Positions 2,708 to 50,900 of a stretch of DNA of 64,000 nt are shown piece after piece (positions within the stretch are counted from its first letter, which is position 1; every line of letters starts with the position of its first letter). The stretch is from an uncultured Planctomycetales bacterium (GTDB lineage Bacteria > Omnitrophota > Gorgyraeia > Zapsychrales > JAHFFX01). The DNA is taken from the NCBI GenBank assembly GCA_964464475.1, contig CAYXGG010000008.1, positions 27,294 to 91,293 on the forward strand. Direction: 5' to 3'. The position numbers and the translations under genes were made by a program. The notes beneath the pieces were generated by a model. It did not search any database. It was not told where the DNA came from and worked only from the letters and a program-made list of their open reading frames with translations.

Positions 2708-2756
2708 CGCCCCCGGGTCAGTTCTGGTTCGGGGGCGTTTGTTTTTCTGTTTTGGA
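2708..2756 (+). terminator. rho-independent terminator downstream of pckA
   Basis: CGCCCCCG…(14-nt loop)…CGGGGGCG stem followed by TTTGTTTTTCTGTTTT. Confidence 0.6.
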
Positions 2757-2778: not shown

Positions 2779-2787
2779 TGCTACAAT
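2779..2787 (+). promoter_or_regulatory. extended -10 element (TGnTACAAT) upstream of the dsbA-like operon
   Basis: tgtgcTACAAT about 40 nt upstream of the 2828 start; a GGGGAG SD follows. Confidence 0.3.
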
Positions 2788-2827
2788 ACGTTCCACATCA
2801 TCAACATAGAGACGGGGAGATACCATA

Positions 2828-3463
2828 ATGGCCAACGCATCAAAAAAGAATTTCACCATCTGTTTTGTTGTTTTCTGTGTGGTTCTTATTGTCGCCATCA
2901 ATTATTTTAAACAGCAGCTGGCCCCCAAGGTTCTGGTCAGCAATCAAGAGCGTTCTAAGGGTTCGGCGGCAGCTCCCGTAAAAATTACGGAATACATGGA
3001 TTTTCAGTGTCCTGCGTGCGCGCGGGGCGCCATTATGATCCGTCAATTTATGGCCGCTTATCCAGATAAGTTATTCGTAGAAATGAAACATTTTCCTTTG
3101 GAACAAATTCATCCTCACGCCGTACGCAGTTCCCGTTATGCTGAGTGCTCCGCTCGCCAGGGAAAATTCTGGCCCATGCATGATGTTTTAGTGGATAAGC
3201 AAAATGATTGGAAAGGGATGGTCAATGCCGATGTCTACTTCCAGCAGGTCGCCAAAGATATTAAACTGGATTTCTGGAAATTAGAATCCTGTTTGACCGA
3301 TGACAGTATAAAAAATTTTATTATGGCGGAGAAAACCGAAGGAGAAGCCCGTGGGGTCCAGTCCACGCCCACGTATTTCATTAACAATGAGATGGTGGTG
3401 GGAACGAAGTCTTTGGAAGAGAAGTTAACCAAATTGATTGGAGCCTTGCCATCCAAACCTTAA
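2828..3463 (+). CDS. DsbA-family thioredoxin-fold oxidoreductase, N-terminal membrane anchor
   Basis: CPAC active-site motif in a thioredoxin-like context (…EYMDFQCPACARG…); N-terminal hydrophobic segment FTICFVVFCVVLIVAI. Confidence 0.8.
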   Translation: MANASKKNFTICFVVFCVVLIVAINYFKQQLAPKVLVSNQERSKGSAAAPVKITEYMDFQCPACARGAIMIRQFMAAYPDKLFVEMKHFPLEQIHPHAVRSSRYAECSARQGKFWPMHDVLVDKQNDWKGMVNADVYFQQVAKDIKLDFWKLESCLTDDSIKNFIMAEKTEGEARGVQSTPTYFINNEMVVGTKSLEEKLTKLIGALPSKP

Positions 3464-3474
3464 TCGTCTTTCGT

Positions 3475-3903
3475 TTGTTAATTGGGTTGCTTTTTGTGGT
3501 CTCAGGGGGAGAGAAGGTCCTGAGTCCGTATCAAAACTTTTTGTATGTTGTCCAGAATTATGAAATGCTGCCAACTCTGGGGGAAGAACTGGTGGCGCGC
3601 CTATTCCCTTGGATCGAATTATTTTTAGGCCTTTTTCTATTGTTGGGTTTATGGCTTCCTTGGGCCTTACGCGGAACCGCGCTCATGCTCCTAACCTTTT
3701 TGGTCGTGGTGGGCCAAGCGATGTTAAGGCAATTACCTATCGGAGAATGCGGGTGTTTTGGTAAGTTGATTTCTTTACCGCTGCATGTGGTTTTTATTAA
3801 CGACAGTGTTATGTTGATCTTGATCGGGCTGATGTTGTGGCGGCCGCAGGCTGTGGCGAAATGTAGTCTCGATCATTATTTTTCCAGAACAGTAAAATCG
3901 TGA
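3475..3903 (+). CDS. DoxX-family integral membrane protein
   Basis: About 140 aa with four predicted TM helices typical of the DoxX/DoxD family; TTG/GTG start uncertain; 11-nt gap to the upstream gene. Confidence 0.65.
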   Translation: MLIGLLFVVSGGEKVLSPYQNFLYVVQNYEMLPTLGEELVARLFPWIELFLGLFLLLGLWLPWALRGTALMLLTFLVVVGQAMLRQLPIGECGCFGKLISLPLHVVFINDSVMLILIGLMLWRPQAVAKCSLDHYFSRTVKS

Positions 3904-5384
3904 TGAGATTTCTGGTTGGGGCTGGGTTATTTATTATGGGATTAACTTCTTTCGCTTTTGGTCAAACGCCCATCAAAGAGCCCAACGTTGCCGGCCAGTT
4001 CTATCCGGATAACGCGAAAGAATTAGCCTCCGAGATTGAGACCCATTTTGCGCTTTCCTCTCAGAAAGAATTGCAATCACCCGTAGAAGTCATGATCGCT
4101 CCTCACGCCGGTTACTTTTTCTCAGGCGGGGTCGCGGCGTATAGTTTTAAAGCGATTGCCCACAAGGCCTACAAGACGATCGTTGTTATTGCCCCGAGTC
4201 ATTTTTTTCCTTTTGAAGGAATCTCCGTTTGGCCGCAGGGTGGGTTTAAAACGCCGTTAGGGATCGTGTCGGTGGATGAAGAATTCGCCAGCCAACTATT
4301 AAAAGCCAGCCCGAAGTTTCAAAACATCCCAAAAGTTTTTGACCGGGAGCACGCCTTAGAAGTCGAACTGCCTTTTTTGCAACAGACTTTTAAGGATTTC
4401 AAAATTGTTCCGATTTTGATGGGTCAACCCAATGTTGAGGTCTGCCAGAATTTGGCGCGAGCGCTCGATCAGATTATCGGAAAGCGCGATGATGTTTTGA
4501 TTGTGGTCTCTACCGATTTGTCGCACTATCACCCCGATGAGGTGGCTCGCCAGATGGATCAGCGTACTTTAGAGGCGATCGCAGCCCTTAAATCCGATGA
4601 TTTTTGGCAGGAAAATTTAACCGGAACTATGGAAATGTGCGGGTTTACGGGTGTCATGACCGCGTTGCTGTACGCGCAATTAAGGCATTTAAAACCGGAA
4701 GTGCTTAAATATGCCAATTCTTCGGAGGCGTCGGGAGATAAGAATCGGGTTGTTGGTTACAGCGCCGTTGCTTTTTCTCGCGATGCAACGTCTGGCGCGG
4801 TTGACAAAGATTCGGATCTTGACGCGGCCTTAGCCAGCCATCAGAAAAAACGTTTATTGCAGATTGCTCGGGAGACTGTGCAGACTTTTGTGACGACGGG
4901 CAAAGTTCCGAATGTGACGGAAGATGACGCGCGTCTAAAAACCAGGGAAGGCGCTTTTGTGACTTTGCGTAAACATGGCGAACTACGGGGTTGCATTGGA
5001 CACATTATCGGTCGACAGCCGTTGTATCAAACGGTCCGCGATATGGCCGTCGCCGCGGCTTCACAGGATTCGCGTTTTGATTCGGTATCGGTGGCGGAAT
5101 TATCAGACCTAGAAGTGGAAGTTTCCGTCTTGTCCGTACCTCAGGTCATCACCAATCCGAATGAAATCGAGCTAGGTAAACATGGGGTGATTGTCAGTCA
5201 GGGGCCTTTTCGCTCCGGCCTATTTTTGCCGCAGGTCGCGACCGAAACCGGTTGGGATAAAGAAACATTTCTTTCCGTTCTTTGTACTCAGAAAGCGGGG
5301 CTACCCGCGCAAGCCTGGAAAGATCCCAAGACCCGCTTGGAGATTTTTACAGCCGATGTGTTTTCTGAGAAAGACGTTCCCTAG
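3903..5384 (+). CDS. fusion of MEMO1-like (AmmeMemoRadiSam system protein B) and AMMECR1 domains, with predicted N-terminal signal peptide
   Basis: Memo signatures AGQFYP, IAPHAGYFFSG, STDLSHYHP; C-terminal AMMECR1 signature ELRGCIGH; N-terminal MMRFLVGAGLFIMGLTSFAFG-QT looks like a Sec signal; start codon overlaps the DoxX stop (TGATG). Confidence 0.85.
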   Translation: MRFLVGAGLFIMGLTSFAFGQTPIKEPNVAGQFYPDNAKELASEIETHFALSSQKELQSPVEVMIAPHAGYFFSGGVAAYSFKAIAHKAYKTIVVIAPSHFFPFEGISVWPQGGFKTPLGIVSVDEEFASQLLKASPKFQNIPKVFDREHALEVELPFLQQTFKDFKIVPILMGQPNVEVCQNLARALDQIIGKRDDVLIVVSTDLSHYHPDEVARQMDQRTLEAIAALKSDDFWQENLTGTMEMCGFTGVMTALLYAQLRHLKPEVLKYANSSEASGDKNRVVGYSAVAFSRDATSGAVDKDSDLDAALASHQKKRLLQIARETVQTFVTTGKVPNVTEDDARLKTREGAFVTLRKHGELRGCIGHIIGRQPLYQTVRDMAVAAASQDSRFDSVSVAELSDLEVEVSVLSVPQVITNPNEIELGKHGVIVSQGPFRSGLFLPQVATETGWDKETFLSVLCTQKAGLPAQAWKDPKTRLEIFTADVFSEKDVP

Positions 5385-5392
5385 CGACGCCT

Positions 5393-5872
5393 ATGAGTGA
5401 ATCCGCCCGCCCGGTATCCCGCATACACAAACTTCGCAACTTCGGTATTTCTCTTTTTGTCATTCTTTGGACGCTTTACTTTCACTATCACTCCGTTCGG
5501 CATTTTTATCTTGAGCCATGGTTGCAGCGGTCTTTGCCGGCGCCAAAATGGCTGTTCCCGCCGGCCGGCTGGATTATGTTTTATAACGTGAATTATTCGT
5601 ATGGATTCGCTGAAGTTTACGGGATAAAAGAGAAACGTTTGGAGAAAATTGATCCGCATTTAATCCTTAGAACGAGAGCGGTCGGCTATGACAATATTAA
5701 ACGCAATGTGTTGACCATGGTGTTGACGCCAAGTCTCAAGGAGCCGTTTTGCGGTTTTCTGAAAAAACGCCTTCCGCATTATGAAGGCTATTGGGTCACA
5801 TACGTGCAGTATTCCGATTTAAAGAATCATCCCCAGCAGGCGTATCGGCAGCTGGTTTACGAGTGTCGCTAA
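5393..5872 (+). CDS. hypothetical single-pass membrane protein
   Basis: ATG 8 nt after the previous stop; one N-terminal TM helix; no recognisable domain; stop overlaps the next start (TAATG). Confidence 0.5.
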   Translation: MSESARPVSRIHKLRNFGISLFVILWTLYFHYHSVRHFYLEPWLQRSLPAPKWLFPPAGWIMFYNVNYSYGFAEVYGIKEKRLEKIDPHLILRTRAVGYDNIKRNVLTMVLTPSLKEPFCGFLKKRLPHYEGYWVTYVQYSDLKNHPQQAYRQLVYECR

Positions 5873-7167
5873 TGAAGAAACTGTGGAATCGATTATTTTT
5901 GGAGGAACGCCCGTCGCTAGGGTTGGCATTTTTTCGCATCGCCGCCGCGCTGACTGTCGGGTTGCACGTGATTCCATCCTTCTTTCATCTGGGCGATAAT
6001 TATTTTGCCGGAGCCCTGAAGGAGATAAACCCTAATTTTTTTCCGGTGGGGGCGATACGCTGGGTTCAGTCTAGTCCCGATATCGTGGTGGGAGGGATGG
6101 TCGTCGTTTTTCTGGTTGCTTGGTTTTGTTTTTTGATTGGTTTTCTGACCCAAGCCAGTTGTATCGTGCTGCAATTGGCCAGCTATTATTTCTACGCGTT
6201 AAATTCTTTTCATATCGGGACGCTGTCCTGGGACATTCTGCTGGTGACCATGTTTTTGTTGTGTTTAACTCCTTACCCGGGGGATTATTTCTCGATTGAT
6301 GCGTTGCGTGGTGCTGACCCTAATGCTTATCGCCGGATGCGGCCGATTTTTATTCAGCGGCTGTTGCAAATGCAAATCGCGTCCACTTTTTTTTATACCG
6401 CGCTTTATAAAGTGACCGCGCAGGGTAATTGGTTGACCGGAAACCCGATCCACGCGCTGATGAATTATCCTCCTGAGGGGGTGACGAAATGGTTTCTTTT
6501 GAAGGAATACTTAGCCGTACATCCGGATCTTTGCTACGGGATTGGATTATTGATTGTCGTGATTGAACTGTTGATGCCGGTATTGCTGTTTTGGCCGAGG
6601 ACAAGACAGAGCGCGATAATACTTGGTTTTTTGTTCCATGTCGGTTTGGTTTGGACACTGGATGTGCCGACCATTTTCTTTTTTTTGTTCCCGGCCCAGT
6701 TGCTGCTTTTTATTAATTCTAAAGATATCGTCAATTGGATTGAAATCCAACGTCAAGAGAATGCCCGCTTACGTCTCTGGCATTTGTTGTATGACGGCCA
6801 GTGCCATTTTTGCCGCAATAGCGTGCGCCTGTTAAAAACGATGGATATGTTCAACGTCGCGGAGTTGATTAATCTTCACGATGTACCTGATTTCTCTGCA
6901 GATTTTCCCGGGTTGACTCGCGAGGCCGCCTTAAGTCAGATGCATCTGGTTGATGGGCAAGGGAGGGTATTTGCCGGCTTCGCGGCGTTACGCAGACTGT
7001 CTTGGCGGATCCCCATGCTAACGATGCTGATGCCGTTGTTATATTTCCCTGGTACGGGAATTGTCGGGCCCTGGGTGTATGGTTGGGTTGCAAAAAACCG
7101 ATATGTGTTTCACGCTAATTCTGTTTGCGAAAACAACGCTTGTTTCCGTCGTTCCATAAAAAAGTAA
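5872..7167 (+). CDS. HTTM (vitamin-K-dependent gamma-carboxylase-like) multi-pass membrane domain fused to a C-terminal DCC/DUF393 thiol-disulfide oxidoreductase domain
   Basis: N-terminal HTTM signature (…SLGLAFFRIAAALTVG… plus multiple TM helices); C-terminal DUF393 signature LLYDGQCHFCRNSVRLL…AKNRYVF; ATG at 5872 (MKKLWNRLF) in TAATG overlap. Confidence 0.85.
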   Translation: MKKLWNRLFLEERPSLGLAFFRIAAALTVGLHVIPSFFHLGDNYFAGALKEINPNFFPVGAIRWVQSSPDIVVGGMVVVFLVAWFCFLIGFLTQASCIVLQLASYYFYALNSFHIGTLSWDILLVTMFLLCLTPYPGDYFSIDALRGADPNAYRRMRPIFIQRLLQMQIASTFFYTALYKVTAQGNWLTGNPIHALMNYPPEGVTKWFLLKEYLAVHPDLCYGIGLLIVVIELLMPVLLFWPRTRQSAIILGFLFHVGLVWTLDVPTIFFFLFPAQLLLFINSKDIVNWIEIQRQENARLRLWHLLYDGQCHFCRNSVRLLKTMDMFNVAELINLHDVPDFSADFPGLTREAALSQMHLVDGQGRVFAGFAALRRLSWRIPMLTMLMPLLYFPGTGIVGPWVYGWVAKNRYVFHANSVCENNACFRRSIKK

Positions 7168-7230
7168 AGATTCGTTTTGGTTCATCCCCACTTCGTAGTA
7201 CGATACATTGAATTTAAACTTAAGGAATTT

Positions 7231-8574
7231 ATGCGGAAAAAAATAATATTTCTTTTTGTATTTTTGAACACGCTAGCTTTGCTTTCAATGGGTGGCGCTA
7301 AGGCGTATGTTTCGGATAATTTGATTGCTTCTAACAACGGCCAAAGCAAAGAGTTAACTCAAAAAGTGGCGCTGATGTATGAAGAAGCCAATCAGTATTT
7401 TATGGCCAATCAGCAAGAAGAGGCGCTGCGACTTTTTAAGAAAATAGAAAAACTCCTTCCCGATTATAAATCCACGCGAAATTACATAACTTTCTTAACG
7501 GCAAAGAAAACGGAGAACGTTCGTCTGGCCGAGGCGCGAGCGATTGTGTCTCCCCCCAAGGAGCGCGTTAGTGTCGCGCAGGCAGAAAATTTGGCCGAGT
7601 CTGTTCGTCGAGAAAAACAACAATCCTTGAGCGCTCTGCCATCGGCTGACGTAGAGGTAACGTCTCCAGAGCCAGCTCCGGTGACGACGATGTTTCCTTC
7701 AAATTCGTCCGCTGACGCTGGTCACCCAAATTCAGATTCGGCCATGAACGCTACCTATGTCCAGGCAAGTTCGCGAAAAAATGAATTGGTTCAGGAAAGC
7801 GCTGAATTGCAAAAGGATTTTTACCGAGGCATCGCTAATCTGTATGAGCGCGGAGAAAAATATTTCAATGAAGGAAGATTAGGGCAGGCGCGACTCATTT
7901 TTGATCAGATTAATGAACTGGCTCCCGGTTTTAAACAAACGAATTCTTATTTGGAAAAGCTGGCTAACGCAAGTTGGGATGATGATTTAGATTTGCCGGC
8001 GGCCGTATCTTGGACCGATACTGTCGGCGCTCAGCCATCCGGAAAGAAAGTTTCGCGTTTTGATTTGGAGAGTCTTTATGCTTATGCTGTTCATTTGTAT
8101 CAAAGTGAACGATTGGTGGATGCTAAGCAGAAATTTATCGAGGTCGCTGAGATTGATAAGGATTATAAGTTGACCCAACGCTATTTAGGATTGTTAGGTG
8201 CTCGCTCTCCTGATAGTGTGCCGGAGGTAACTGAAATGCCAGAAACACCTGCGGATCTTTCGGGAGATCCGCGCGCCCAAAAGCGGGCTCTGAAGGCTCG
8301 ACAACGTGAGGAAAAATTGGCGCAACAGCAGAAGATGCGCGATGAGAAGAAAGCGCGTAAGGAAGCTCTGAAGGCGTTAAATCAGGAAGAGATGAAGAAA
8401 GAGTTGGATGATCTGTATGTCGAGGCGATCCAGCTTTTTGGAGAGCGAAAATTTGATGAGTCAGAAAAACGATTTAATCAAGTGCTCTTAATCAAGCCGG
8501 GATACAAGAATTGTCATCATTATTTGAAAATGATTGTGGGAGAAAGGGCGTTGACGCGTCCCTCTCAGGACTAA
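7231..8574 (+). CDS. secreted repeat protein (TPR-like; four copies of an approximately 34-aa motif ending P-x-YK-x-T-x-x-YL)
   Basis: Signal peptide MRKKIIFLFVFLNTLALLSMGGAKA; internal repeats …LPDYKSTRNYITFL / …APGFKQTNSYLEKL / …DKDYKLTQRYLGLL / …KPGYKNCHHYLKMI; Lys/Arg/Glu-rich coiled segment. Confidence 0.6.
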   Translation: MRKKIIFLFVFLNTLALLSMGGAKAYVSDNLIASNNGQSKELTQKVALMYEEANQYFMANQQEEALRLFKKIEKLLPDYKSTRNYITFLTAKKTENVRLAEARAIVSPPKERVSVAQAENLAESVRREKQQSLSALPSADVEVTSPEPAPVTTMFPSNSSADAGHPNSDSAMNATYVQASSRKNELVQESAELQKDFYRGIANLYERGEKYFNEGRLGQARLIFDQINELAPGFKQTNSYLEKLANASWDDDLDLPAAVSWTDTVGAQPSGKKVSRFDLESLYAYAVHLYQSERLVDAKQKFIEVAEIDKDYKLTQRYLGLLGARSPDSVPEVTEMPETPADLSGDPRAQKRALKARQREEKLAQQQKMRDEKKARKEALKALNQEEMKKELDDLYVEAIQLFGERKFDESEKRFNQVLLIKPGYKNCHHYLKMIVGERALTRPSQD

Positions 8575-8586
8575 GGGAGGATTAAG

Positions 8587-8925
8587 ATGAAAAAGATACT
8601 GCTTGCCATTTTTTTGTTGTTGCTGTTGGGTTCGCCGCTGGCCATAGCTCAGCCGCCATCTGATATTGAACTGAGTTTCAATCAGGAGTCAAAAGTTCTT
8701 TCGATAAAAGTCCTGCATGTTTCGCAACGTAACCGAGATCATTATATTCGTCGGATTTGGGTGTATTTGAACGATCAAGAAGTCGTTAAGGACGGTTTTG
8801 CCGCTCAGGAACCTTGGGGAATCGCACACGATGTCAAAGTGGAAGCGAAGTCAGGTGATGTGATTCGCGTGGTGGCCAAGTGTTCCAAAGCCGGCGAGAC
8901 GACACAGACTTTGCAAATTCCGTAA
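8587..8925 (+). CDS. small secreted protein with degenerate superoxide-reductase (desulfoferrodoxin Fe-binding)-like domain
   Basis: Signal peptide; [19 protein letters not shown] resembles the SOR HPM…EEHYIEWIEL block and a Cys sits at the SOR-equivalent position, but the N-terminal His and the C-x2-H His ligand are absent. Confidence 0.45.
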
Positions 8926-9011
8926 GGGTTTGTAAATTTCTTTTTTTGAATTTTTTGTTTTTGGCATTATTAATCTTTTTTCCCTCGTCGCTTGACGCTC
9001 ATCAAGATTTT

Positions 9012-11135
9012 ATGACCCAGCCAGCCTTGAATCGCCTTTCGCAAGAAAAAAGTCCTTATCTTTTGCAGCACGCGGAGAACCCCGTTGATTGGTATCCTTG
9101 GGGACCGGAAGCTTTCGCCAAAGCTAAAAAAGAAAATAAACCGATACTGTTATCTATCGGTTATTCCACGTGTCATTGGTGCCATGTCATGGCGCATGAG
9201 TCGTTTGAGAATCCTGACATCGCGCGTTTGATGAATGAATATTTTGTTGCGATTAAAGTGGATCGCGAAGAACGACCGGACATTGATCAGGTTTATATGA
9301 CCGCGGTGACCGCTTTAAGCGGGCAAGGAGGCTGGCCGCTCACCGCTTTCTTAACACCCGACCAGAAGCCGTTTTACGGCGGAACCTATTTTCCTCCTGA
9401 ACCGAAATGGGGATCTCCGGGATTTCGTCAAGTTTTGGAATCTATTCATTCCGCCTGGGTCAATCAGCCCGAACAGGTTTCTAAATCCAGCGCGTCACTC
9501 CTTAAGTTTTTGCAAGAACAAGCCAAGCCAACTCCTGCCGCTGAACCGCTCGGGCGGGATGTCCTGACTGCCGCGTATTCAACCTTCGTCGCTAATTTTG
9601 ACGAACGTTATGGCGGATTCGGGTCGCACCCTAAGTTTCCTTCGGCGCATAATCTATCCTTTTTATTGCGTTTTAGTCAGGGATCAGCGAAATCTGAAGC
9701 GCAAGCTATGGCCGAACTAACGTTACAGGCTATGGCGAAAGGCGGTCTCTATGACCACTTAGGCGGCGGGTTTCATCGATATTCAACGGATGAAAGATGG
9801 CATGTTCCACATTTTGAGAAAATGTTATATGACCAAGCCACGCTGGTCATCGCGTATTTGGAAGCGTATCAGTTGACTGGCTTGCCAGCGTATGCTCGGG
9901 TGGCTCGAGAGGTGCTGGATTATGTCGCGCGGGATTTGCGATCGCCGGAAGGGGGCTTTTTTAGCGCGGAAGATGCGGATAGTTTGCCGGTAGAAAATGG
10001 ACACGAGAAGAAAGAGGGCGCTTTTTACATTTGGAGCGCCAAAGAGCTAGATGCTTTGCTGGGCAAAGACGCGATCGTTAATAAATATTATTTTGGCGTT
10101 GAACAAGAAGGGAACGCACTTTCAGATCCGCATGGAGAATTTATTGGTCAAAATATTCTTTTTGTCGCGCGAACCGTCGAGCAAACGGCACAATTTCTAA
10201 ATTTGGAGGTGGCGGAAGTTGAGGCGGCGCTGACTCGTTCGAAGCAACTTCTTTTCTTGCATCGCCAGCGACGTCCCCGGCCGCACCTGGATGATAAAGT
10301 ATTGACGGATTGGAATGGGTTGATGATTTCCGCGTTTGCGTTGGGCGGTCGGGTGCTGGACGAGTCTAAGTATACGGACATTGCTGAGGCGGCGGCGAAG
10401 TTTGTTTTGAGCAAATTGTTGAAGCCGGATGGGGAACTGTTGCATCGCTACCGCGATCAGGAAGCGGCGATTAGAGGCACATTGACGGATTATGCTTTTT
10501 TGACGCAGGGTTTGCTGGATTTGTATCCGGCCACCCTGAATGTGACCTACTTAACTCAGGCGATCGCCTTAACCCACCGTCAGGTGACTTTATTCTGGGA
10601 CGCTGCGGCGGGAGGTTTTTTTATGACAGCGCAGAACGCCGAGCCATTGATTATTCGGCAGAAAGAAGTGTACGACGGGGCTCTGCCATCGGGTAACTCG
10701 GTGGCCGCGCTTAATTTGTTACGGTTGTATGCGCTCACGCTGAATTCTTTTTGGCGTGATAAAGCTGATGCGACTCTTGAAGCTTTCGCGGCTCCTGTTC
10801 GGCAACATCCCGCTGGTTATGGTCAAATGTTGATGGCTTTGGATTATAAATTGGGACCATCTCGGGAAATTGTGCTTTCCGCGAAAGACATGAATCCGGA
10901 AGTAAGAACATGGTGGCATTTTTTAATGACGGGATTCTTTCCGCGTACGGAATTTCTTTTTTATGATCTTTCGGCTCAAGGATCCGCTTCGTTAGTTTCG
11001 CTAGCGCCTTTTGTTAAGGATCAACCTCCCTTAGAAGGGCGTCCCACGGTTTACGTCTGTGAAAACCACGTTTGTCAATTACCGGTTCAGGGTTTAGAGA
11101 AGTTACGTCAGGTATTGATGAGCCCTCAACCGTAA
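9012..11135 (+). CDS. DUF255 thioredoxin-domain protein (YyaL/SPATA20-like; thioredoxin domain plus N-acylglucosamine-2-epimerase-like alpha/alpha barrel)
   Basis: Signature …[22 protein letters not shown]…; first ATG at 9012 (MTQPALNRL). The ORF extends upstream to 8880 and encodes a signal-peptide-like stretch, so the true start is uncertain. Confidence 0.8.
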
Positions 11136-11257: not shown

Positions 11258-12106
11258 ATGGAAAAACTCCTCGGTGGTATTCTCATCGCTGTCATTGTTC
11301 TCGGTTTTGGCACGGCTTTCTTGAATGACCCTGAATTTGCTAAACAATTTTCATTGCGGAACATTTTGACGTCAATCGGAATTTTTCGGGCTGATTCGGA
11401 TCGTCAGGAACTAGTCAGTAGATCTCGAACCGATGTCACCCAGTTTATGGAGCGCTACAAAGATATCGTGGCCCAGCAGCAAACCATGATGGAAACCCTC
11501 AAGGATCGTAATGATCAAATATTAGAAGATTTACAAAGTCGCCTGGAGCAGAGCCGCCAGCAGCAAGCCCAGACTTCTGACGCGACACAAAACCTCGCCC
11601 GCCGCTGGGAAGATACCGTTGCTCACACTAAAGCCATGAATGATCAGTTGCTACAAAATATGAAAGACCAAATGGTTTCTAATATGTTGGCACGCGAGGG
11701 GCGGGTTGATCCGCAGGAATTAATGCAGCGACAGAATCAAGTCCTGGCGGATACTCAGCAACGGATGAGTCAGTTAATGGATAATATGCGCGATAAAATG
11801 GAACAGGTGGAAGAGACCCGCCAGTTGATCAAAAATTCGGAAGCCATGTGGCAACGTCAACGAGAAGTAATTCAGGAAATCAACAACCGCAACGAGCAGT
11901 TAATGCAGGACATTCAGTATAAAATGGCTGAGCAGCGTCAGCGCAATGAGGACGCTATGGCCGCAGTGCGTGAGAAACAAGAGCAGACCACTCAGCGAAA
12001 TCAGGACCAGATGGAGCGCCTTCAGCGGGACCGAGAGCGGTCCGAAGACATGCAGCGCCGGCTTCGTGACCAGATTGAGGCCCAGCGGGCACGCGCTGGC
12101 TATTAG
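11258..12106 (+). CDS. membrane-anchored Gln/Arg-rich coiled-coil protein
   Basis: N-terminal TM helix, then a long heptad-like Q/R/E/M-rich region; no catalytic motifs. Confidence 0.5.
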   Translation: MEKLLGGILIAVIVLGFGTAFLNDPEFAKQFSLRNILTSIGIFRADSDRQELVSRSRTDVTQFMERYKDIVAQQQTMMETLKDRNDQILEDLQSRLEQSRQQQAQTSDATQNLARRWEDTVAHTKAMNDQLLQNMKDQMVSNMLAREGRVDPQELMQRQNQVLADTQQRMSQLMDNMRDKMEQVEETRQLIKNSEAMWQRQREVIQEINNRNEQLMQDIQYKMAEQRQRNEDAMAAVREKQEQTTQRNQDQMERLQRDRERSEDMQRRLRDQIEAQRARAGY

Positions 12107-12233
12107 GTTTTACCCACCCCGACGATTATTCCTGCTTGCGGTCAACGTAGCTTGACCAAACAACCCTTGAATTCTCATTGAAAAAAGTTATCATAAACGC
12201 GTTAACTTTATAATTCCATAAAGGAGCGGTCTT

Positions 12234-14126
12234 ATGAAAGCGTTAAAGATCATTTTTCTGGTGGTGATAGTCATCATTGTTTTGGGAGGAGTAGGTGCAT
12301 GGCTTTTTGTTAAGAATTTTGATTTGAACAAGTATAAGCCGCAGATTGTAGAGCAGGCGAGCAAGGCCTTCGGACGTCCTGTCCAGATCGGCGATTTAAA
12401 GTTAAATCTATCCGCCGCGCAAGGTGTTGCTTTAGGGGTCAGTGGGTTTAGCGTTGAAGACTTACCTGCCTTTCAGCAAGGCAAATTGCTGCAAGTGGAA
12501 TCAGTACAGGTCGGCGTGGATGTACAGCATTGGCTACAGACCAAAGAGGTTCGCGTCACAAAAATTCTGATTCATAAACCGGTGTTGAATTTAGTAAAGA
12601 ATGAACAGGGGCAATTAAACCTCGAGTCGTTGGGGAAATCTGAAAAGGCACCTGCGGGGGATGTCAGTGGTGTTTCGGCTCCATCTACCACTAGTCCTAG
12701 CGCCGCATCAGTATCTCAGCCTATTCCTAAATTTGTGGTCAATCAGATTGCCATTACTGAGGGAAGCATTGCCATCTTAGATCGCAGTCCTGGGGGCGTC
12801 AGCTTGCAGGTCCAGCCGTATCAATTAACCGTCAACAATTTTACCCTGGGTCAGCCGTTTCAGGTGGATCTGAAGGCCGCGGTCCTGAGTGGTTCTCCCA
12901 ATATTCAGGTTACCGGGTGGGTCACACTTGACGAGGCTAAACAGGCCGCGACACTTAAAGACATTCATTTTTCAACTGATCTCGCGTTATTTAAACTATC
13001 GGAAGTCGAGAAGTTGTTATTGAGTTTCGGGACTGGAGCCTCACTCCCTAAAGAATGGGCCGGGCAACTCTCGGTTTCTATTCCTGGGGCGGTGGTGGGC
13101 GCTAAGGGGCTCGAAGGCTTTAGCGCAAACGGTACATTGACCAATGGTAAAGTGGCCTTAAAGGAGTTGGCTGTTCCGATTGAAAATGTGGCGGCGGAGT
13201 TTTCTGCGACGACCGAAACAGTTGATTTAAAAAATCTTACTCTCTCGATAGCAGGTGGCCAGGTCAAATCGCAAGCCATTGTTAGGGATTTTCTAACTGA
13301 TCCTAAATTTGATTTAGAGAAAAAGATTACGGATGTTTCCATCGGTGATCTGATTGATCAGTCCGCTCAGCCAGCTAAATTTTCCGGGAAATTATCTGGT
13401 CAGTTTAAAGGAACCGGTCAGGGGAAAACGCCAGATGCCTTGCAGACTTCTTTGGTCGGTAACGGCGCTTGGAGTGTGGCCGAAGGGAAATTGATGAATT
13501 TGAATGTGCTAAAAACCGTATTGAGTAAGATTTCGATGATTCCTGGTTTAGTGGAAAAAGTGGAGCAAAATTTACCGGAAAAATATAAGGAAGTTTTGAA
13601 TCGACAAGACACGTTGTTGTCTAAAATTGAAGTTGAGTCGAGCGTTCAGTCCGGTAGGATTAATCTTAGTAAAGCGCAGATTATGGGCGAAGGCTTCGCT
13701 TTGGCGGCTGAAGGGAGTGTTGGCTTTGACCAAACGGTGGCGTTAAATGCGGCGATGTTTATTCCCGAGGATTTAGCCGCCGCTATGATCGCGGCCGTTC
13801 CGGAGTTGGACTACGTTAAGGAAGAATCGGGGCGTATCCGTATCCCGGTTGAGATTAGTGGGAAAGCAAATGCTTTAGTGATTGCTCCGGATTTGGATTA
13901 TTTAGGTAAGCGATTGATTGTCAACAAGGGACGGGAAGAATTAAATAAGGTGCTGAATAAAGTTTTGGGTGGGGAGGAAGAATCCGCCCCCCAAGGATCA
14001 GTCCCTGGGGACGCACGCCCGGCGGGGGCTGAGGGTAATGCTCCCACGGATGCTTCTGCTCCAGCGGATGACCAGCCTCTGGAAAAGAAATTATTAAATA
14101 ACGTGTTAGATTCCATATTTAAATAA
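12234..14126 (+). CDS. AsmA-family outer-membrane assembly protein
   Basis: N-terminal TM anchor followed by a long beta-rich periplasmic region typical of AsmA/TamB-like proteins; SD AAAGGAG. Confidence 0.65.
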   Translation: MKALKIIFLVVIVIIVLGGVGAWLFVKNFDLNKYKPQIVEQASKAFGRPVQIGDLKLNLSAAQGVALGVSGFSVEDLPAFQQGKLLQVESVQVGVDVQHWLQTKEVRVTKILIHKPVLNLVKNEQGQLNLESLGKSEKAPAGDVSGVSAPSTTSPSAASVSQPIPKFVVNQIAITEGSIAILDRSPGGVSLQVQPYQLTVNNFTLGQPFQVDLKAAVLSGSPNIQVTGWVTLDEAKQAATLKDIHFSTDLALFKLSEVEKLLLSFGTGASLPKEWAGQLSVSIPGAVVGAKGLEGFSANGTLTNGKVALKELAVPIENVAAEFSATTETVDLKNLTLSIAGGQVKSQAIVRDFLTDPKFDLEKKITDVSIGDLIDQSAQPAKFSGKLSGQFKGTGQGKTPDALQTSLVGNGAWSVAEGKLMNLNVLKTVLSKISMIPGLVEKVEQNLPEKYKEVLNRQDTLLSKIEVESSVQSGRINLSKAQIMGEGFALAAEGSVGFDQTVALNAAMFIPEDLAAAMIAAVPELDYVKEESGRIRIPVEISGKANALVIAPDLDYLGKRLIVNKGREELNKVLNKVLGGEEESAPQGSVPGDARPAGAEGNAPTDASAPADDQPLEKKLLNNVLDSIFK

Positions 14127-19175: not shown

Positions 19176-22100
19176 ATGTCGACCCAAGAATCACTTTATC
19201 AGTTAAATCACGACGGATCGTTTGTGATTCGTCAGTATAACCGCGCCAAACCTTTTAGTAATTTTTTTCCCGGTATCGCCGGTGTCTGGGGAACGCCTAT
19301 GTGGGTGTTTTACACGAATCGCGGTCAGGCCATCTCCAGTTTTGGGATAGAAAGCAAGGACAAGGCCATCTGTGAATTTCAACCGGCCAATAAAGCTTTT
19401 CGTCAAACCAGCTTGCATGGCTTTCGAACTTTTTTGAAAATCAGTTCCGCTGGAAAAGCGATCACGCTGGAACCCTTCCAGGATCAGGAGTTAGCCCTAT
19501 CTTCTAAAAAGAAACAGCAGCTAACCATCAATTCTCATGACTTGACACTAAGTGAACACAATTTGCAGGCGGGGATCCAAGTTGACGTGAATTATTTTAC
19601 GTTGCCGGAAGAACCCACTGCAGCGTTAGTTCGGCGGCTCACGATTAAGAATATTTCTCGAAAAGCACAAACCTTGGAAATAGTAGATGGATTACCCATG
19701 ATGGTTTGTTTTGGGATCAACGAGTGGGCGTTGAAGAACATGTCGCGTACCGTGGAGGCCTGGATTGTTGTCGATAATTTGCCAAAGAAAGCTCCTTATT
19801 ATCATCTTAAGGTGGACATCGCTGATAAACCTATTGTGGAGCCGATTACGGAAGGGAATTTTTACTTTGCTTTTGTATCTGGAAGCCGTGAGGGAAAATT
19901 GTTGGATCCCATTATTGAAGCGTCCAAGGTTTTCGGTGCTTGTCAGGATTATCAAATCCCTCAGGCTTTCTGGGCGGCGAACACCTATTCGGTTCCCAAA
20001 ATTCAATTCGCCTCAAATAGGACGCCGTGCGCGTTTAGTTTTCATAAAACGACCTTAAAACCCGGGCAGAAGGTTGAGATTATTTCTTTGGCTGGCTACG
20101 CGGCTAGTATTCAGGATTTAAATTCTTTTGTCGAGAAAGCTACGCGTCGAGGTTATGTCGAGCAAAAAGCTCAACGGAATCAGGAAATCATTCAGGAAAT
20201 TAAGAATTTTACTTTGACTAAAAGCGCGTCATCGGCTTTTGACGCCTACGCCGGTCAAACGTTTCTGGACAATGTCTTACGCGGTGGCCTTCCCGTGTCG
20301 TTAGCGGTGGGAGATTCTAAAGTGGCTTTTAATGTGTATAGCCGTAAACATGGGGATCCGGAAAGGGATTATAATTATTTTCTGCTTTCGCCAACTAACT
20401 TTTCTCAAGGTAACGGTAATTACCGCGACGTTAATCAGAACCGGCGCAGCGATGTCTGGTTCAATCAAGATGTTAAAGACGCGCACATCATTAATTTTTT
20501 AAGTCTGAGCCAAGCGGACGGATATAATCCTCTGGTCGTCAAAGGATTGTCTTTCTCCGTCGTGGATAAGGCCAAGGTAATATCGTTACTGTCGGGGCAC
20601 CTCAAAAAAGATGAAGAGCAGGAAAGAGTTTTGAAGTTCCTGGATAATCCTTTCCAGCCCGGTGAACTACTGCGCTTCATCACGCAAAACAAAATTGGGC
20701 TCAAAAAATCTTTGTCGCAGTTTTTGGGTGATATCTTGACTGTTTGTCAGAAAAATGAGGCGGCTGATCATGGAGAAGGGTTTTGGGTGGATCACTGGCA
20801 GTATAATTTGGACATGATTGAAAGTTATTTGGCCGTTTATCCGGAATCTTTGAAGGATTTGTTATTAGGAAAGAAGTCATTCACGTTTTTTCATAATGCG
20901 CATTATGTTTTATCTCGTGATGAACGGTATGTCCTGACTCCCGAGGGCGTGCGTCAATATCATTCGGTCAAAGACGCTCGTAAGGAAATTAAAACAGTTC
21001 ATAAAGATAATCGTTTGAGAGTCAAACATGGCGAGGGGCATATTTATCATACCCATTTGCTGGCGAAATTGTTGGTTTTGGTCGCGAGCAAAGCCGCGAC
21101 CCTAGATCCGGATGGAATCGGAATTGAAATGGAAGCGGACAAGCCGAGTTGGTATGACGCGCTTAACGGCTTACCGGGCTTGTTGGGCTCTTCGATTTGC
21201 GAAACCTTTGAATTAAAGCGACTGGCGAAATTTCTATTAAATGCGTTTGAGGCGGTGCAACTTAATGACCAGGACCCCGTGGAAATTTTTGTAGAGCTCG
21301 CTGTTTTTGTTCGTGGTTTACTCGAAGCGTTACGGCATCGCACGGACGCTTTAATCTATTGGGACCGCTCGAATGAAATAAAGGAGCAATACCGGGAAAA
21401 AGTCCGTTTGGGATTAGATGGCCATGAAGAGGAGATTTCTATCGGCGACATCAAAGAATTCTTACGGTTGCTGATTGATCGAATTGACGAAGGGATTGCG
21501 AAGGCTAAGGGCAAAAATGGTCTTTTTGCCACGTACTTTGCTTATGACGTGATTGAACATGAACCGCTGGAAAAAAAGCAAGCCGATGGTCGTCCTTTTA
21601 TCTGGCCGCTAAAATTTAAACGGCATGATTTGACGCACTTTTTGGAAGGATTTGTGCACGGGTTGAAAGTGGAAGATGATCCGACTCAGGCCCGTCAGCT
21701 CTATAACGCGGTGCGGCAAAGCGCGTTATTTGATAAAAAACTTAAGATGTATAAGGTGAATGCTGATTTGCGAAAGGAATCACAGAATATTGGTCGCTGC
21801 CATGTCTTTCCCGCGGGATGGCTAGAAAATGAGTCGGTGTGGTTGCACATGGCATATAAATATTTATTGGAAATCTTTCGAGCTGGGTTGTATGCCGAAT
21901 TTTTTGCGGATTTCAAAACGTCGCTGGTGCCGTTTTTGAATCCGAATGTTTATGGCCGTAGCATTTTGGAGAATTCTTCGTTTATTGTGAGTAGCGCCCA
22001 CGAAGATCCGTCTTTGCATGGTCAAGGATTTGTCGCGCGGTTAAGCGGCAGTACCGCGGAGTTTCTGCAATTGTGGTTATTGATGAACGTGGGGACCAAT

Positions 22101-22533: not shown

Positions 22534-22782
22534 ATGAATAAAAATTACCTTTATGGTTTTTTGACGGCAACGGTATTATTTTTGTCTTTAGGGAATATGT
22601 TTTTATATAAAGCGGAAGCGCAGTCGCGGGGATTTGGCGGGGTGGTTCCTTTTGTTACGCCGAGTGGATGGGTGGGGCTTTTTAATCAGAATGACGGAAT
22701 GATGTATTTTTATGATGACCGCTTGCAGAATTGCATCAAGACGGTAAAAGTGAACACTTTGGGTGGGGCTTTACAGGAATAA
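22534..22782 (+). CDS. small secreted hypothetical protein
   Basis: AAGGAGG SD 7 nt upstream of ATG 22534; signal-peptide-like N-terminus; lies directly upstream of moxR. Confidence 0.4.
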   Translation: MNKNYLYGFLTATVLFLSLGNMFLYKAEAQSRGFGGVVPFVTPSGWVGLFNQNDGMMYFYDDRLQNCIKTVKVNTLGGALQE

Positions 22783-22793
22783 AGGGAGGGCTT

Positions 22794-23786: not shown

Positions 23787-23929
23787 CTTTCGGGTTTAGA
23801 GAAAAGGGTATAGGGTAAAGTTGGGAAGTCCTAAGCCTTTCTTGATTCTGAGGTTTTGAAGGATGAAGAACTGTTTGTCGAAGACCCTAATCCCTATTTA
23901 GCAGACCCGCCCATTGTTTTCATACCGCT

Positions 23930-24841: not shown

Positions 24842-24852
24842 TAGGTAAAAAG

Positions 24853-25404: not shown

Positions 25405-25427
25405 GGGGCAAGGGAGCCTAAAAGTTC

Positions 25428-26426: not shown

Positions 26427-26434
26427 GATCATTT

Positions 26435-27463: not shown

Positions 27464-27480
27464 CATGCTAGAGAGATAGA

Positions 27481-28470: not shown

Positions 28471-28474
28471 GGCC

Positions 28475-47666: not shown

Positions 47667-47668
47667 AT

Positions 47669-48460: not shown

Positions 48461-48487
48461 CACTAACATAGAAAGGAAGGCCGCGCA

Positions 48488-50900
<2,413 letters not shown>

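Follow-up and report, generated by a model that had tools for sequence, protein, structure and literature searches.

Gene layout of the locus

The window analyzed, a stretch of 64,000 nucleotides, contains eight consecutive open reading frames on the plus strand (g1-g8). The gaps between them are, in order, 11, -1/-4, 8, -1, 63 and 12 nt, followed by a last gap of -46 to +86 nt between g7 and g8, the value of which is set by the choice of start codon for g8. A strong intrinsic terminator (2708..2737, plus strand; 13-bp stem with nine GC pairs and a T run) is located 3' of a PEP carboxykinase (PEPCK) gene and is the predicted upstream edge of the transcription unit, and no terminators of comparable strength were found within g1-g8. 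A TGnTACAAT-like -10 element is located downstream of the terminator at about 2780-2789 (plus strand). Position 2779, where the original prediction let the region begin, is not a gene start but falls in this element. The tight same-strand packing of the eight genes is real, but not distinctive, as all ORFs over positions 4-34648 (>30 consecutive genes with short gaps) are on the plus strand.

The first gene, g1 (2828..3463), has an RBS (GGGAG) in front of its ATG and encodes a membrane-anchored DsbA-like thioredoxin-fold protein with a CPAC motif and a cis-Pro TPT loop (Pfam Thioredoxin_4, E 2e-23; DSBA, E 4.7e-14). From its N-terminal transmembrane helix, the thioredoxin domain should be located in the periplasm. 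The protein encoded by g2 (3475..3903) is a four-helix membrane protein of the MauE/DoxX type, in which a CGCFG motif supplies a pair of cysteines; its previous assignment to DoxX agrees with a Pfam match (E 1.6e-6), but MauE fits better (E 7.1e-22). g3 (3903..5384; start at 3900 or 3903) encodes a secreted fusion of Memo (Pfam E 5e-65, 219.8 bits) and AMMECR1 (E 9e-55, 185.1 bits), with NCBIfam matches to TIGR04336 (287 bits) and TIGR04335 (173 bits), both over the cut-offs. The His/His/Asp-His/Cys motifs of Memo and the LRGCIGH motif of AMMECR1 are intact, and the signal peptide (MMRFLVGAGLFIMGLTSFAFG followed by Q) has counterparts in essentially all full-length homologues.

g4 (5393..5872) encodes a single-pass protein of 159 aa and overlaps g5 (5872..7167; 431 aa), which starts at the ATG inside a TAATG. 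The predicted HTTM-DCC fusion in g5 was confirmed by Pfam, with an HTTM domain of eight transmembrane helices at about nt 5923-6717 (52 bits) and a thioredoxin-fold DCC domain with a YDGxCxFC motif at about nt 6784-7107 (DCC1-like, 72.6 bits); the C-terminal tail contains a CxNNxC motif.

Downstream, g6 (7231..8574) encodes a secreted protein with a signal peptide and four TPR-like repeats of ~45 aa separated by charged linkers (TPR_2, a weak match of 29 bits). g7 (8587..8925) encodes a small, secreted, beta-rich protein. It has a signal peptide, and its conserved H44, H52 and C99 recall in part the iron site of superoxide reductase; the match to Desulfoferrodox, and with it the degenerate SOR-like domain suggested previously, is sub-threshold (E 0.11). 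g8 (8946..11135; start uncertain) encodes a DUF255/YyaL-type thioredoxin domain (Thioredox_DsbH, E 8.8e-80) with a CHWC motif and a hydrophobic N-terminus, followed by a six-hairpin domain. Candidate starts are GTG 8880, TTG 8946 and ATG 9012, of which the gene caller chose 8946, and homologues downstream of g5 occur both with and without a signal peptide. Apart from DoxX and the SOR-like domain, all domain calls of the original prediction held in the Pfam/NCBIfam searches.

Conservation of the gene block

The neighbourhood of g5 was compared in 80 loci from 80 species-level Omnitrophota-type genomes, all from one broad lineage; the denominator of 75 given below is the number of loci with enough surrounding DNA. 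g4 is located immediately 5' of g5 in 75/75 informative loci and is the sole universal partner of g5, not the filler it had been taken for. g3 is found near g5 in 59 of 67 loci, and the complete block of g1+g2+g3+g4 in 50 of 67, where g2 always accompanies g1 in unchanged order. Both flanks of the block vary: PEPCK persists upstream in 21 loci, and on the downstream side FtsW, repeat protein or pilus genes are found. g7 was identified in 11/53 loci and g8 homologues downstream of g5 in 14/53, g6-g8 accompanying only about 20-25% of the loci. Contrary to the original proposal, the eight genes do not make up a single conserved system; the conserved unit consists of five of them, g1-g5, and g6-g8 are accessories of a sub-clade. 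As to recurrence elsewhere, the DsbA-like, MauE and Memo-AMMECR1 genes are found beside HTTM-DCC in related genomes as well.

Matches to the repeat HMM of g6 were observed directly 3' of g5 in 17 loci, including L013. In three cases (L013, P0036 and P0056) a g6-like protein forms an in-frame fusion with HTTM-DCC, and g6 probably associates physically with g5.

Alternatively, only g4-g5 may be a unit and the remainder neighbourhood, with a co-orientation that stems from a compact one-strand genome; g1-g2 would then be a general periplasmic disulfide system, g3 an unrelated secreted enzyme and g6-g8 unrelated envelope proteins. The long one-strand gene run and the origin of all loci from one broad lineage are consistent with this, and the conservation of g1-g2 could be synteny inherited inside one phylum. 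In several genomes the g4-g5 pair stands alone amid unrelated or opposite-strand genes, and the low frequency of g6-g8, which come with downstream AsmA-like and Nudix genes, suggests plain synteny. However, g3 is on the opposite strand in 13 loci, where it adjoins NAD kinase or CstA, and is still within about 3 kb of g4-g5. The g1-g4 block is likewise intact despite a protein identity of only 40-60%, with PEPCK kept in 21 loci and varying genes downstream, and the three g5-g6 fusions also argue against mere neighbourhood, an explanation we consider unlikely.

The HTTM-DCC protein and its small partner

The AF2 model of g5 (pLDDT 79) was compared with the PDB by Foldseek, and matched only human GGCX, the vitamin-K-dependent carboxylase (14 entries, E 2e-6 to 3e-5, probability 1.0). 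An hhalign alignment of 22 g5 homologues to human GGCX, using a sequence 100% identical to the PDB chains, gave an E-value of 7.7e-5 over 248 columns, with a probability of only 62%. Within this alignment, six pairs of g5 and GGCX residues are invariant in the g5 family, namely K180=K218, W187=W223, E232=D263, F255=F286, H256=H287 and F269=F299. In GGCX, K218 is the base deprotonating the quinol, D263 and F286 bind its ring, F299 holds CO2, and N159/H160 bind Glu (PMC12647623). The segment containing N159/H160 (N158-S161) is absent from g5, and Glu carboxylation by g5 is therefore unlikely. The family also has an invariant DCC motif (D308/G309/C311/C314) and two invariant cysteines in the HTTM body, C131 and C221.

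In Bacillus thuringiensis (DUF5819-HTTM-DUF393) and Sulfitobacter, HTTM and DCC are not fused but neighbouring genes; the order small transmembrane protein - HTTM - DCC recurs there, and the equivalents of K218 and H287 are invariant across the sequences from these two and human. The HTTM-DCC association is real and old.

A positive-inside count over the 22 homologues predicts a cytoplasmic N-terminus and eight transmembrane helices, of which TM5 carries K180 at its periplasmic end; C131 and C221 fall on opposite membrane faces. The DCC domain is predicted to be cytoplasmic, and the earlier statement that nearly every product is extracytoplasmic does not apply to it; for this one domain, the topology is the one that the original prediction itself had named as speaking against it.

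g4 (AF2 model, pLDDT 84) has a positive N-terminus, a transmembrane helix and a small periplasmic domain of the alpha/beta type; its LFPPAGWIMF motif and two of its cysteines, C120 and C158, are invariant. No Pfam/NCBIfam family was found for g4, even at E 10, and its own family has only 48 representatives among 1.84 billion proteins. The DUF5819 model does not detect g4 at E 10 either. An hhalign comparison with full-length DUF5819 gave a weak local similarity over 41 columns (P 9.5e-4, Prob 22%), pairing the transmembrane helix and 'YLxPLFxR...LFPP' of g4 with 'YxNPLFKQNW-RLFAP'.

Proposed function of the g4-g5 pair

Based on the sequence and model comparisons, g4 and g5 may together be a quinol epoxidase of the GGCX type, split over two chains, regenerated by a thiol domain of its own and with a non-Glu or unspecified substrate, a tentative assignment to which we give a probability of about 0.45. 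The functional core would be the g4-g5 pair, rebuilding the GGCX architecture from two polypeptides. g5 would give the eight-helix HTTM body with a quinol-activating site at the periplasmic face, while g4 would add an extra membrane helix and a small periplasmic cap, its juxtamembrane LFPPAGWIMF motif probably closing the quinone pocket. A membrane naphthoquinol, e.g. menaquinol, would bind at K180/E232/F255/H256, be deprotonated by K180 and be oxygenated by O2 to the epoxide. The cytoplasmic, membrane-dipping DCC domain, with its CxxC and C-terminal CxNNxC motifs, would then pass electrons from cytoplasmic thiols and restore the quinol. The net result would be a one-protein vitamin K cycle with DCC in the role of VKOR; that DCC is a quinone or epoxide reductase we purely infer.

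Because the Glu-binding segment of GGCX is absent, the energy of epoxidation would be spent on another substrate or in a sink. It may drive work on a different substrate not encoded adjacently, which we slightly prefer in view of the strong conservation of the periplasmic cap, or the reaction may serve simply as a sink, linked to O2, for the electrons of quinols and thiols. Within the five-gene block, the secreted Memo-AMMECR1 enzyme would probably act on the same periplasmic or lipid substrate, and the DsbA-like/MauE pair would probably link the oxidation of periplasmic thiols to the same pool of quinones. g6-g8 would be lineage-specific accessories.

The analogy to the vitamin K cycle drawn in the original prediction is reasonable, given that GGCX is the only match of the g5 model and that the residues of the quinol site are conserved. 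It does not extend to eight genes as one system, and probably not to Glu carboxylation. The predicted location of DCC and the quinol head-group site on opposite membrane faces counts against a recycling role of DCC, and the lack of a conserved substrate gene beside the pair counts against the epoxidase assignment. Epoxidation moreover needs O2, which weakens the assignment, as Omnitrophota are mostly described as anaerobes. The window also contains a Bat aerotolerance operon, which shows no more than that exposure to O2 is relevant for the organism.

An oxygen-independent thiol-quinone relay would fit a lineage that is likely anaerobic or microaerophilic. HTTM would here be a quinone-binding scaffold like DsbB/VKOR, without epoxidation or strong-base chemistry; electrons would move among the cytoplasmic CxxC of DCC, the quinone pool and the periplasmic DsbA-like/MauE pair, and the block would be a disulfide-forming or disulfide-reducing pathway. 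This would agree with the three thiol-redox proteins around HTTM (g1, g2 with CxC, and DCC with CxxC and CxNNxC), with the invariant cysteines of the HTTM body and g4, and with the lack of a conserved substrate gene beside g4-g5 in the 80 loci. A scaffold alone would, however, not need the invariant epoxidase-site residues of GGCX (K218, W223, D263->E, F286/H287 and F299). The opposite-face positions of C131 and C221, and the occurrence of the small-protein/HTTM/DCC triad in Bacillus and Sulfitobacter without a DsbA/MauE neighbour, also make the relay an unlikely alternative to the epoxidase.

Bacillus subtilis SdpB is an HTTM protein working with the small protein SdpA, and SdpAB- or linaridin-type maturation of a secreted peptide or toxin, in which HTTM and its small partner would process or modify the peptide, with g6 or g7 as cargo, was also considered. 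For linaridin clusters, a contribution of an HTTM-domain protein to maturation of the peptide has been assumed (PMC9927463). In B. thuringiensis, the neighbours of DUF5819-HTTM-DUF393 include small hypothetical genes and an S8 peptidase, and at the present locus g6 and g7 are secreted, g6 being sometimes fused to g5 elsewhere. Nevertheless, this is very improbable, as no small precursor, immunity or export genes are conserved beside g4-g5 in the 80 loci, g6 and g7 accompany the pair in only about 20% of loci, g4 matches neither SdpA nor any other family, and the pair is located among housekeeping genes.

Comparison with known systems

The HTTM domain of g5 agrees with GGCX in its predicted orientation, with a cytoplasmic N-terminus and the catalytic Lys at the outer face. 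In GGCX a single chain of 758 aa includes a large lumenal domain, whereas at this locus body and cap are encoded separately; the cap is much smaller, and its gene lies upstream of the body gene. GGCX furthermore has a basic loop where g5 has its fused cytoplasmic DCC domain, and a Gla-type substrate is not evident here.

The DUF5819 + HTTM-DCC1-like complex of Melghirimyces has the same gene order and architecture, with a single-pass small protein 5' of a fusion of ~430-450 aa (bioRxiv 10.64898/2026.08.19.745780). Its AF3 model resembles whole GGCX; as proposed for g5, the predicted menaquinol site is lined by conserved Lys, Trp and Phe residues, and, as proposed for g4, a juxtamembrane Leu-Phe (Leu59/Phe60 of DUF5819) touches the vitamin K pocket (bioRxiv 10.64898/2026.08.19.745780). 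The DUF5819 model misses g4, which forms its own compact family with only the 41-column similarity, and the Memo-AMMECR1 and DsbA/MauE neighbours belong to the Omnitrophota version only, not being reported for the Melghirimyces pair.

Truncated GGCX-like proteins of giant viruses, interpreted as epoxidases and not Glu carboxylases, keep K218, carry D263->E and adjoin VKOR; D263E GGCX retains 25% activity (PMC13486548). As in g5, the HTTM body has Glu for D263 and is without the carboxylation-specific part; it is paired with a thiol-driven quinone recycler, a part that DCC would play in g5. The viral recycler is a separate lumen-facing VKOR, and a sterol desaturase is fused, whereas here DCC is fused and a dedicated cap, g4, is present.

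MloH, the malonomycin carboxylase, has been cited as a carboxylase of the vitamin-K type from bacteria (PMC12647623; bioRxiv 10.64898/2026.08.19.745780). As described there, it is a bacterial HTTM enzyme with a non-Glu substrate, and shows that the fold also serves purposes other than making Gla in proteins; its HTTM and cap-like regions are in one chain and it belongs to a PKS-NRPS cluster, while no biosynthetic cluster is found here. With MloH, the DUF5819 + HTTM-DCC pair and the viral modules, the view that bacterial HTTM proteins lack an assigned function no longer holds.

g1 and g2 have the two-part layout of MauD/MauE and DsbA/DsbB, with a CxxC protein and a cysteine pair in a membrane helix bundle, but g1 is DsbA-like and not a TlpA-like MauD, and methylamine dehydrogenase genes are absent here. 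g3 matches the A (AMMECR1) and B (Memo) models of the AmmeMemoRadiSam system (TIGR04335, TIGR04336 and TIGR04337), but has the two fused behind a signal peptide, and neither the 64-kb window nor the set of conserved neighbours contains a radical SAM gene.

Since accounts of the DUF5819 + HTTM-DCC pair and of viral HTTM 'vitamin K epoxidase'/VKOR modules appeared in 2026 (PMC13486548), the locus is a variant of a described kind. New here are the partner family g4, the link to Memo-AMMECR1 and the link to DsbA/MauE, by which several function-less protein families gain a shared, testable context.

Gene layout and domain content

Eight ORFs, here termed g1 to g8 and all located on the + strand, were delimited within 2828-11135 of the window. 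Reading of the junctions placed the start of g1, encoding a DsbA-like protein, at ATG 2828, preceded by the ribosome-binding site GGGAG, and the starts of g2 (a MauE/DoxX-type membrane protein), g4 (a 159-aa single-pass protein), g6 (a secreted repeat protein) and g7 (a small secreted protein) at TTG 3475, ATG 5393, ATG 7231 and ATG 8587, respectively. For the secreted Memo-AMMECR1 fusion g3, the start codon is GTG 3900 or ATG 3903 and overlaps the stop of g2; for the 431-aa HTTM-DCC fusion g5 it is ATG 5872, which overlaps the end of g4 in TAATG, and not a TTG further upstream. Candidate starts for g8, encoding a DUF255 thioredoxin-domain protein, are GTG 8880, TTG 8946 (the public gene call) and ATG 9012. 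The intergenic gaps from g1 to g7 are 11, -1/-4, 8, -1, 63, and 12 nt, and the g7-g8 gap is set by the choice of g8 start (-46 to +86 nt). A strong terminator (2708-2737) lies downstream of the PEP carboxykinase gene, and g1 is preceded by a TGnTACAAT-like element; position 2779, where the original prediction let the first gene begin, is therefore promoter DNA and not coding. The terminator scan revealed no comparable terminator inside g1-g8, and with the exception of the terminator at 2708, neither the promoter nor the terminator scan exceeded chance. The tight same-strand packing is not a special feature of these genes, since every ORF between 4 and 34648 in the window is also on the + strand. 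A 122-nt gap without a clear terminator follows g8 and leads to genes for a 282-aa protein (a Q/E/R-rich coiled coil with an N-terminal anchor and no family) and an AsmA-family protein (11258-14126). As the coiled-coil and AsmA genes are syntenic in the sub-clade carrying g6-g8, the transcript may continue past 11135 into them; a downstream Nudix gene is also syntenic there.

Elsewhere in the window, a 1094-aa ORF without a Pfam family at E 1e-4 (19176-22460, + strand) is flanked on one side by a polysaccharide deacetylase gene and on the other by a complete Bat-type "aerotolerance" operon (22731-31098) encoding a MoxR AAA ATPase, DUF58, BatA and BatB (both VWA), BatC (TPR), and BatD, followed by a TPR-SH3 protein. 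The window closes with topoisomerase I and DprA, followed by a gene for a tyrosine recombinase of the XerC/D type (62556-63419) that is probably a housekeeping Xer and not a mobile-element integrase.

HMM searches upheld the domain calls of the original prediction, except that g2 fits MauE better than DoxX and that the SOR-like call for g7 was sub-threshold. g5 matched both HTTM (PF05090; 52.0 bits, cut-off 27.7), over profile positions 9-256 of 259, and DCC1-like (PF04134, DUF393; 72.6 bits, cut-off 27.8), and D308, C311, and C314 of its D-x-x-C-x-x-C motif are invariant in 22 homologues. The DsbA-like thioredoxin models PF13462 and PF01323 (Thioredoxin_4/DSBA) gave 83.8 and 53.1 bits with g1, which has a CPAC active site and an N-terminal hydrophobic anchor, and is predicted to be extracytoplasmic. 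The g2 protein contains a CGCFG motif and scored above the cut-offs of MauE (PF07291; 78.5 bits, E 7e-22) and DoxX (PF07681; 29.1 bits, E 1.6e-6). No family model matched g4 even at E 10. In g6, a signal peptide is combined with four TPR-like repeats, while g8 matched Thioredox_DsbH (DUF255, PF03190; 266.8 bits) and contains a CHWC motif and, besides, a six-hairpin region. g7 also has a signal peptide, but its score with Desulfoferrodox (PF01880; E 0.11, 13.4 bits) was under the cut-off of 22.2, and its homologues keep only two His and one Cys of the 4 His + 1 Cys iron site of superoxide reductase; assignment of g7 as a superoxide reductase/desulfoferrodoxin domain was thus rejected. In six of 15 aligned g7 sequences, predicted cleavage between AxA and HPP would make His the N-terminal residue of the mature protein, which recalls histidine-brace copper sites; the window copy, reading AQPP, does not share this feature.

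The g3 protein matched TIGR04335 (AmmeMemoRadiSam protein A, AMMECR1; 173 bits, cut-off 99) and TIGR04336 (AmmeMemoRadiSam protein B, Memo; 287 bits, cut-off 26), and both the metal-site motifs of Memo and the LRGCIGH motif of AMMECR1 are intact. A classic signal peptide is present in essentially all full-length homologues, and no radical SAM gene (TIGR04337) was identified among the scanned window ORFs of at least 150 aa or among the conserved neighbors. The setting of g3 is therefore not that of the canonical cytoplasmic AmmeMemoRadiSam system. Memo contexts were reportedly tied to isoprenoid modification by Burroughs et al. in 2019, which would fit a quinone or lipid substrate. Literature searches on DCC/DUF393 function, disulfide roles of MauE/DoxX, and AmmeMemoRadiSam returned nothing usable.

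Conservation of the gene neighborhood

Homologues of g5 number in the hundreds at 50-63% identity, the few named ones being assigned to Candidatus Omnitrophota/Omnitrophica. Scanning one genome per species gave 80 loci, nearly all from Omnitrophota MAGs and some labelled Planctomycetales, Elusimicrobia, or Verrucomicrobia, and their six-frame translations were searched with the window proteins. g4 was located directly upstream of g5 in all loci with at least 500 nt of upstream sequence (75/75). Among the 67 loci with at least 2.5 kb upstream, g3 was found anywhere in the locus in 59, and the full g1-g2-g3-g4 block, in window order, in 50, so that the predicted co-occurrence of HTTM-DCC with DsbA-like, MauE/DoxX, and Memo-AMMECR1 genes was borne out in these genomes. 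The eight genes together do not form one conserved set. g6-like repeat proteins directly follow g5 in 17 loci, including L013 where the two are fused, and g7 and g8 were found in 11 and 14, respectively, of the 53 loci with at least 4.5 kb downstream (g8 homologues in 16/80 across all loci). Based on these counts, the genes fall into three tiers: g4-g5 as an obligate pair, g3 and mostly g1-g2 as a conserved block, and g6-g8 as accessories of a sub-clade.

The surroundings of the g4-g5 pair vary considerably. The upstream PEPCK gene is kept in only 21 loci, the genes downstream of g5 include FtsW, type II/IV pilus genes, or a repeat protein, and in several genomes g4-g5 stand alone amid unrelated or opposite-strand genes. 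In 13 of the 80 loci g3 is on the opposite strand, convergent or divergent to g4-g5 and always at most ~3 kb from g5, with genes for NAD kinase, CstA, an O-methyltransferase, and an IS200-type transposase as other neighbors. In locus L001, g3 is separated from g4-g5 by an ~8-kb insert (L001:430-7830) with Bro-N, Gp49, DUF3892, and many small ORFs, which looks like a mobile element or prophage remnant. A PtsI-KARI-LeuA-shikimate dehydrogenase-prepilin peptidase block lies directly upstream of g4-g5 in L005 (L005:1-8010), and the same block is found ~40 kb from g4-g5 in the window (45903-58714), indicating that the pair has moved freely. The Grx/aldo-keto reductase/DoxX neighborhood of L005 recurs in its own lineage only, and was rejected as a general partner set. 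The g4-g5 pairs that stand alone are what might be expected if all genes but g4-g5 were linked by neighborhood association only; in view of the ordered block in 50 loci and the closeness of inverted g3 to g5, we find this explanation unlikely.

In L013 (9980-12349) and in the g5-homologue proteins P0036 and P0056, HTTM-DCC continues in frame at its C-terminus into a g6-like repeat protein, whose signal peptide would act as an extra membrane helix. The continuous frame reflects a genuine gene fusion or the loss of a stop codon, and the three fusions give further support to the g6 link. Some homologues of g8 beside HTTM-DCC have an N-terminal signal peptide or anchor and others lack it, so that the side of the membrane on which the DUF255 protein works appears to differ between species.

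Relationship of g5 to the vitamin K-dependent carboxylase

As a search of PDB sequences with the g5 profile gave no match even at E 10, fold search and hhalign were used. The AF2 model of g5 (pLDDT 79) retrieved 14 cryo-EM entries of the animal vitamin K-dependent carboxylase GGCX from the PDB (E 2e-6 to 3e-5, probability 1.0, ~300 columns), and nothing but GGCX entries was found for the HTTM fold at E<=0.001; the DCC part gave weak glutaredoxin fold matches. The 22-sequence g5 alignment aligned by hhalign to human GGCX (E 7.7e-5; human sequence checked to be 100% identical to the PDB chains), residues 4-284 of g5 corresponding to 47-314 of GGCX. In this alignment, which is profile-based and not structure-based, K180, W187, E232, F255, H256, and F269 of g5, all invariant in the 22 homologues, correspond to K218, W223, D263, F286, H287, and F299 of GGCX. 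The positions of K180 and W187, equivalent to the catalytic Lys and the stacking Trp, were supported by both hhalign and MAFFT, and the K218 and H287 equivalents stay invariant when the Bacillus and Sulfitobacter HTTM proteins are included in the MAFFT alignment. In GGCX, K218 acts as the base that takes a proton from the quinol, D263 and F286 hold the quinol ring, with F286 as a ring sandwich, F299 holds CO2, and the substrate Glu is bound by N159/H160 and Y395 (PMC12647623). Both alignments show the GGCX N158-S161 segment, with N159/H160, to be deleted in g5 (at W120-D121-I-L), and GGCX region 374-418 (including Y395 and M401) and the lumenal propeptide-binding domain are absent from g5, the HTTM part ending at the equivalent of GGCX residue 314. 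With these parts absent, g5 was rejected as a GGCX orthologue, that is, a Glu gamma-carboxylase proper. Judged from the alignments, the quinol-activation residues of GGCX are kept in g5 and the Glu-binding segment is lost. The D263->E change, seen as E232 in g5, is shared with truncated GGCX-like proteins of giant viruses, which have been read as epoxidases, and D263E GGCX retains 25% activity (PMC13486548).

Counts of K+R and D+E per loop in the 22 homologues showed the N-terminus, loops 4 and 6, and the stretch after TM8 to be net positive, and loops 1, 5, and 7 to be neutral or negative. The predicted topology thus has a cytoplasmic N-terminus and eight helices, K180 being placed at the periplasmic end of TM5 and the DCC domain and its hydrophobic hairpin on the cytoplasmic side; the extracytoplasmic location originally proposed for the redox domains does not hold for DCC. 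At the position of DCC, GGCX has a basic cytoplasmic loop (residues 314-360), followed by its last helix and the lumenal domain, and the topology of g4 fits the role of this last helix plus cap.

The small partner of HTTM-DCC

g4 is the true obligate partner of HTTM-DCC and represents a new family without a Pfam model. It has a basic N-terminus, one long helix (10-44), a small alpha/beta domain, and two invariant Cys, and its own profile found only 48 representatives among 1.84 billion proteins. The architecture and the location upstream of HTTM are shared with DUF5819 proteins, which a preprint models together with HTTM-DCC as a GGCX-like complex, Leu59/Phe60 of DUF5819 contacting the vitamin K pocket (bioRxiv 10.64898/2026.08.19.745780). 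The DUF5819 model (PF19136) did not match g4 even at E 10, and g4 was accordingly rejected as a member; comparison of g4 with individual sequences of DUF5819 or of the Sulfitobacter partner yielded no signal. Two full-length DUF5819 proteins gave a weak local hhalign match (Prob 22%, E 9.5e-4, 41 columns), in which the TM helix and YLxPLFxRxLPKxKFLFPP are opposite YxNPLFKQNW-RLFAP and the invariant L54/F55 of g4 fall on the Leu-Phe pair of DUF5819. Comparisons of g4 with the C-terminal part of GGCX were negative or insignificant. Based on these tests, we regard g4 as analogous to DUF5819 in position and architecture, and perhaps as a highly diverged relative.

Searching plasmids at the protein level turned up two informative loci with similar triads outside Omnitrophota. 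Megaplasmids of Bacillus thuringiensis/B. cereus carry three separate genes in the order DUF5819 - HTTM - DUF393 (DCC) beside an S8 peptidase, the neighbor of HTTM in B. thuringiensis scoring 96 bits with DUF5819 and the DCC protein ending in CENNIC, like the CENNAC of g5. On an insecticidal-strain megaplasmid (NZ_CP083157.1, L087:2022-5978), the genes ahead of the triad encode the S8 serine peptidase and a hypothetical protein of 111 aa that matched no Pfam family, and the B. thuringiensis triad may represent a peptide/toxin maturation context distinct from that in Omnitrophota. In Sulfitobacter, HTTM and DCC are preceded by a 155-aa single-pass hypothetical protein which, like g4, has a TM helix and two late Cys, and contains an EWVMF motif. 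The triad of small protein, HTTM, and DCC is thus older than the phylum Omnitrophota.

Discussion

We tentatively propose, at a probability of roughly 0.45 for the mechanism as a whole, that g4 and g5 would form a split GGCX-like enzyme binding a membrane naphthoquinol. K180 and E232 would activate the naphthoquinol for reaction with O2 at the periplasmic face, and the cytoplasmic DCC domain, with its CxxC and C-terminal Cys pair, would re-reduce the oxidized quinone, taking by analogy the part that VKOR has in animals and giant viruses. Since g5 lacks the Glu-binding segment and no gene for a substrate is conserved near g4-g5, the chemistry would either act on another periplasmic or lipid substrate not linked to the locus, or serve as an O2-linked sink for quinol/thiol electrons. 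The strong conservation of the cap, the retention of the F299 equivalent, and the link to a secreted Memo-AMMECR1 lead us to slightly prefer a different substrate. For the lineage studied here, a plausible role of the DsbA-like/MauE pair is to link the oxidation of periplasmic thiols to the quinone used by g4-g5. Of this picture, the linkage of the genes, the fold, the conserved residues, and the predicted topology come from the analysis itself; which quinone is used, the use of O2, the part played by DCC, the formation of a complex, and the roles of all partners are inferred.

A thiol-quinone relay operating without oxygen would be in keeping with the CPAC site of g1 and the CxxC of DCC. The complete Bat operon suggests that the organism has to cope with oxygen, and thereby bears on any O2-dependent HTTM chemistry. 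In view of the retained K218 and F299 equivalents, an oxygen-free relay is unlikely. An SdpAB- or linaridin-type peptide-maturation machine, which the S8 peptidase beside the Bacillus triad might bring to mind, is very unlikely given that no substrate gene is conserved beside g4-g5.

The split quinol enzyme can be extended to a self-contained bacterial vitamin K cycle, where g4 and g5 would oxidize menaquinol with O2 on the outer side of the membrane, DCC and the DsbA-like/MauE pair would return thiol electrons to the quinone, and the resulting strong base or oxidant, together with the secreted Memo-AMMECR1, would carry out a novel modification of an envelope protein or isoprenoid lipid. We consider this extension rather improbable; if true, it would be the first joint biochemical context for bacterial HTTM-DCC, MauE, and Memo/AMMECR1. 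HTTM, DCC, MauE/DoxX, Memo, and AMMECR1 are widespread families, and Memo and AMMECR1 have links to human disease. To our knowledge, none of them has a settled biochemical role outside animal GGCX. The conserved gene order at this locus ties them together and turns a vague "redox operon" into specific, testable questions. If the pair serves as an O2-linked quinol/thiol sink, it would bear on disulfide formation or O2 tolerance in oxygen-sensitive, respiration-poor bacteria.

The core of the system is not categorically new, as the ideas of HTTM-DCC with a small partner and of a vitamin K epoxidase with a thiol recycler were both published in 2026. Novel aspects are the family of g4, the combination of a retained quinol site with a lost Glu site, the predicted cytoplasmic location of DCC, and the g5-g6 fusions, as well as the conserved link of HTTM-DCC to a secreted Memo-AMMECR1 and a DsbA-like/MauE pair.
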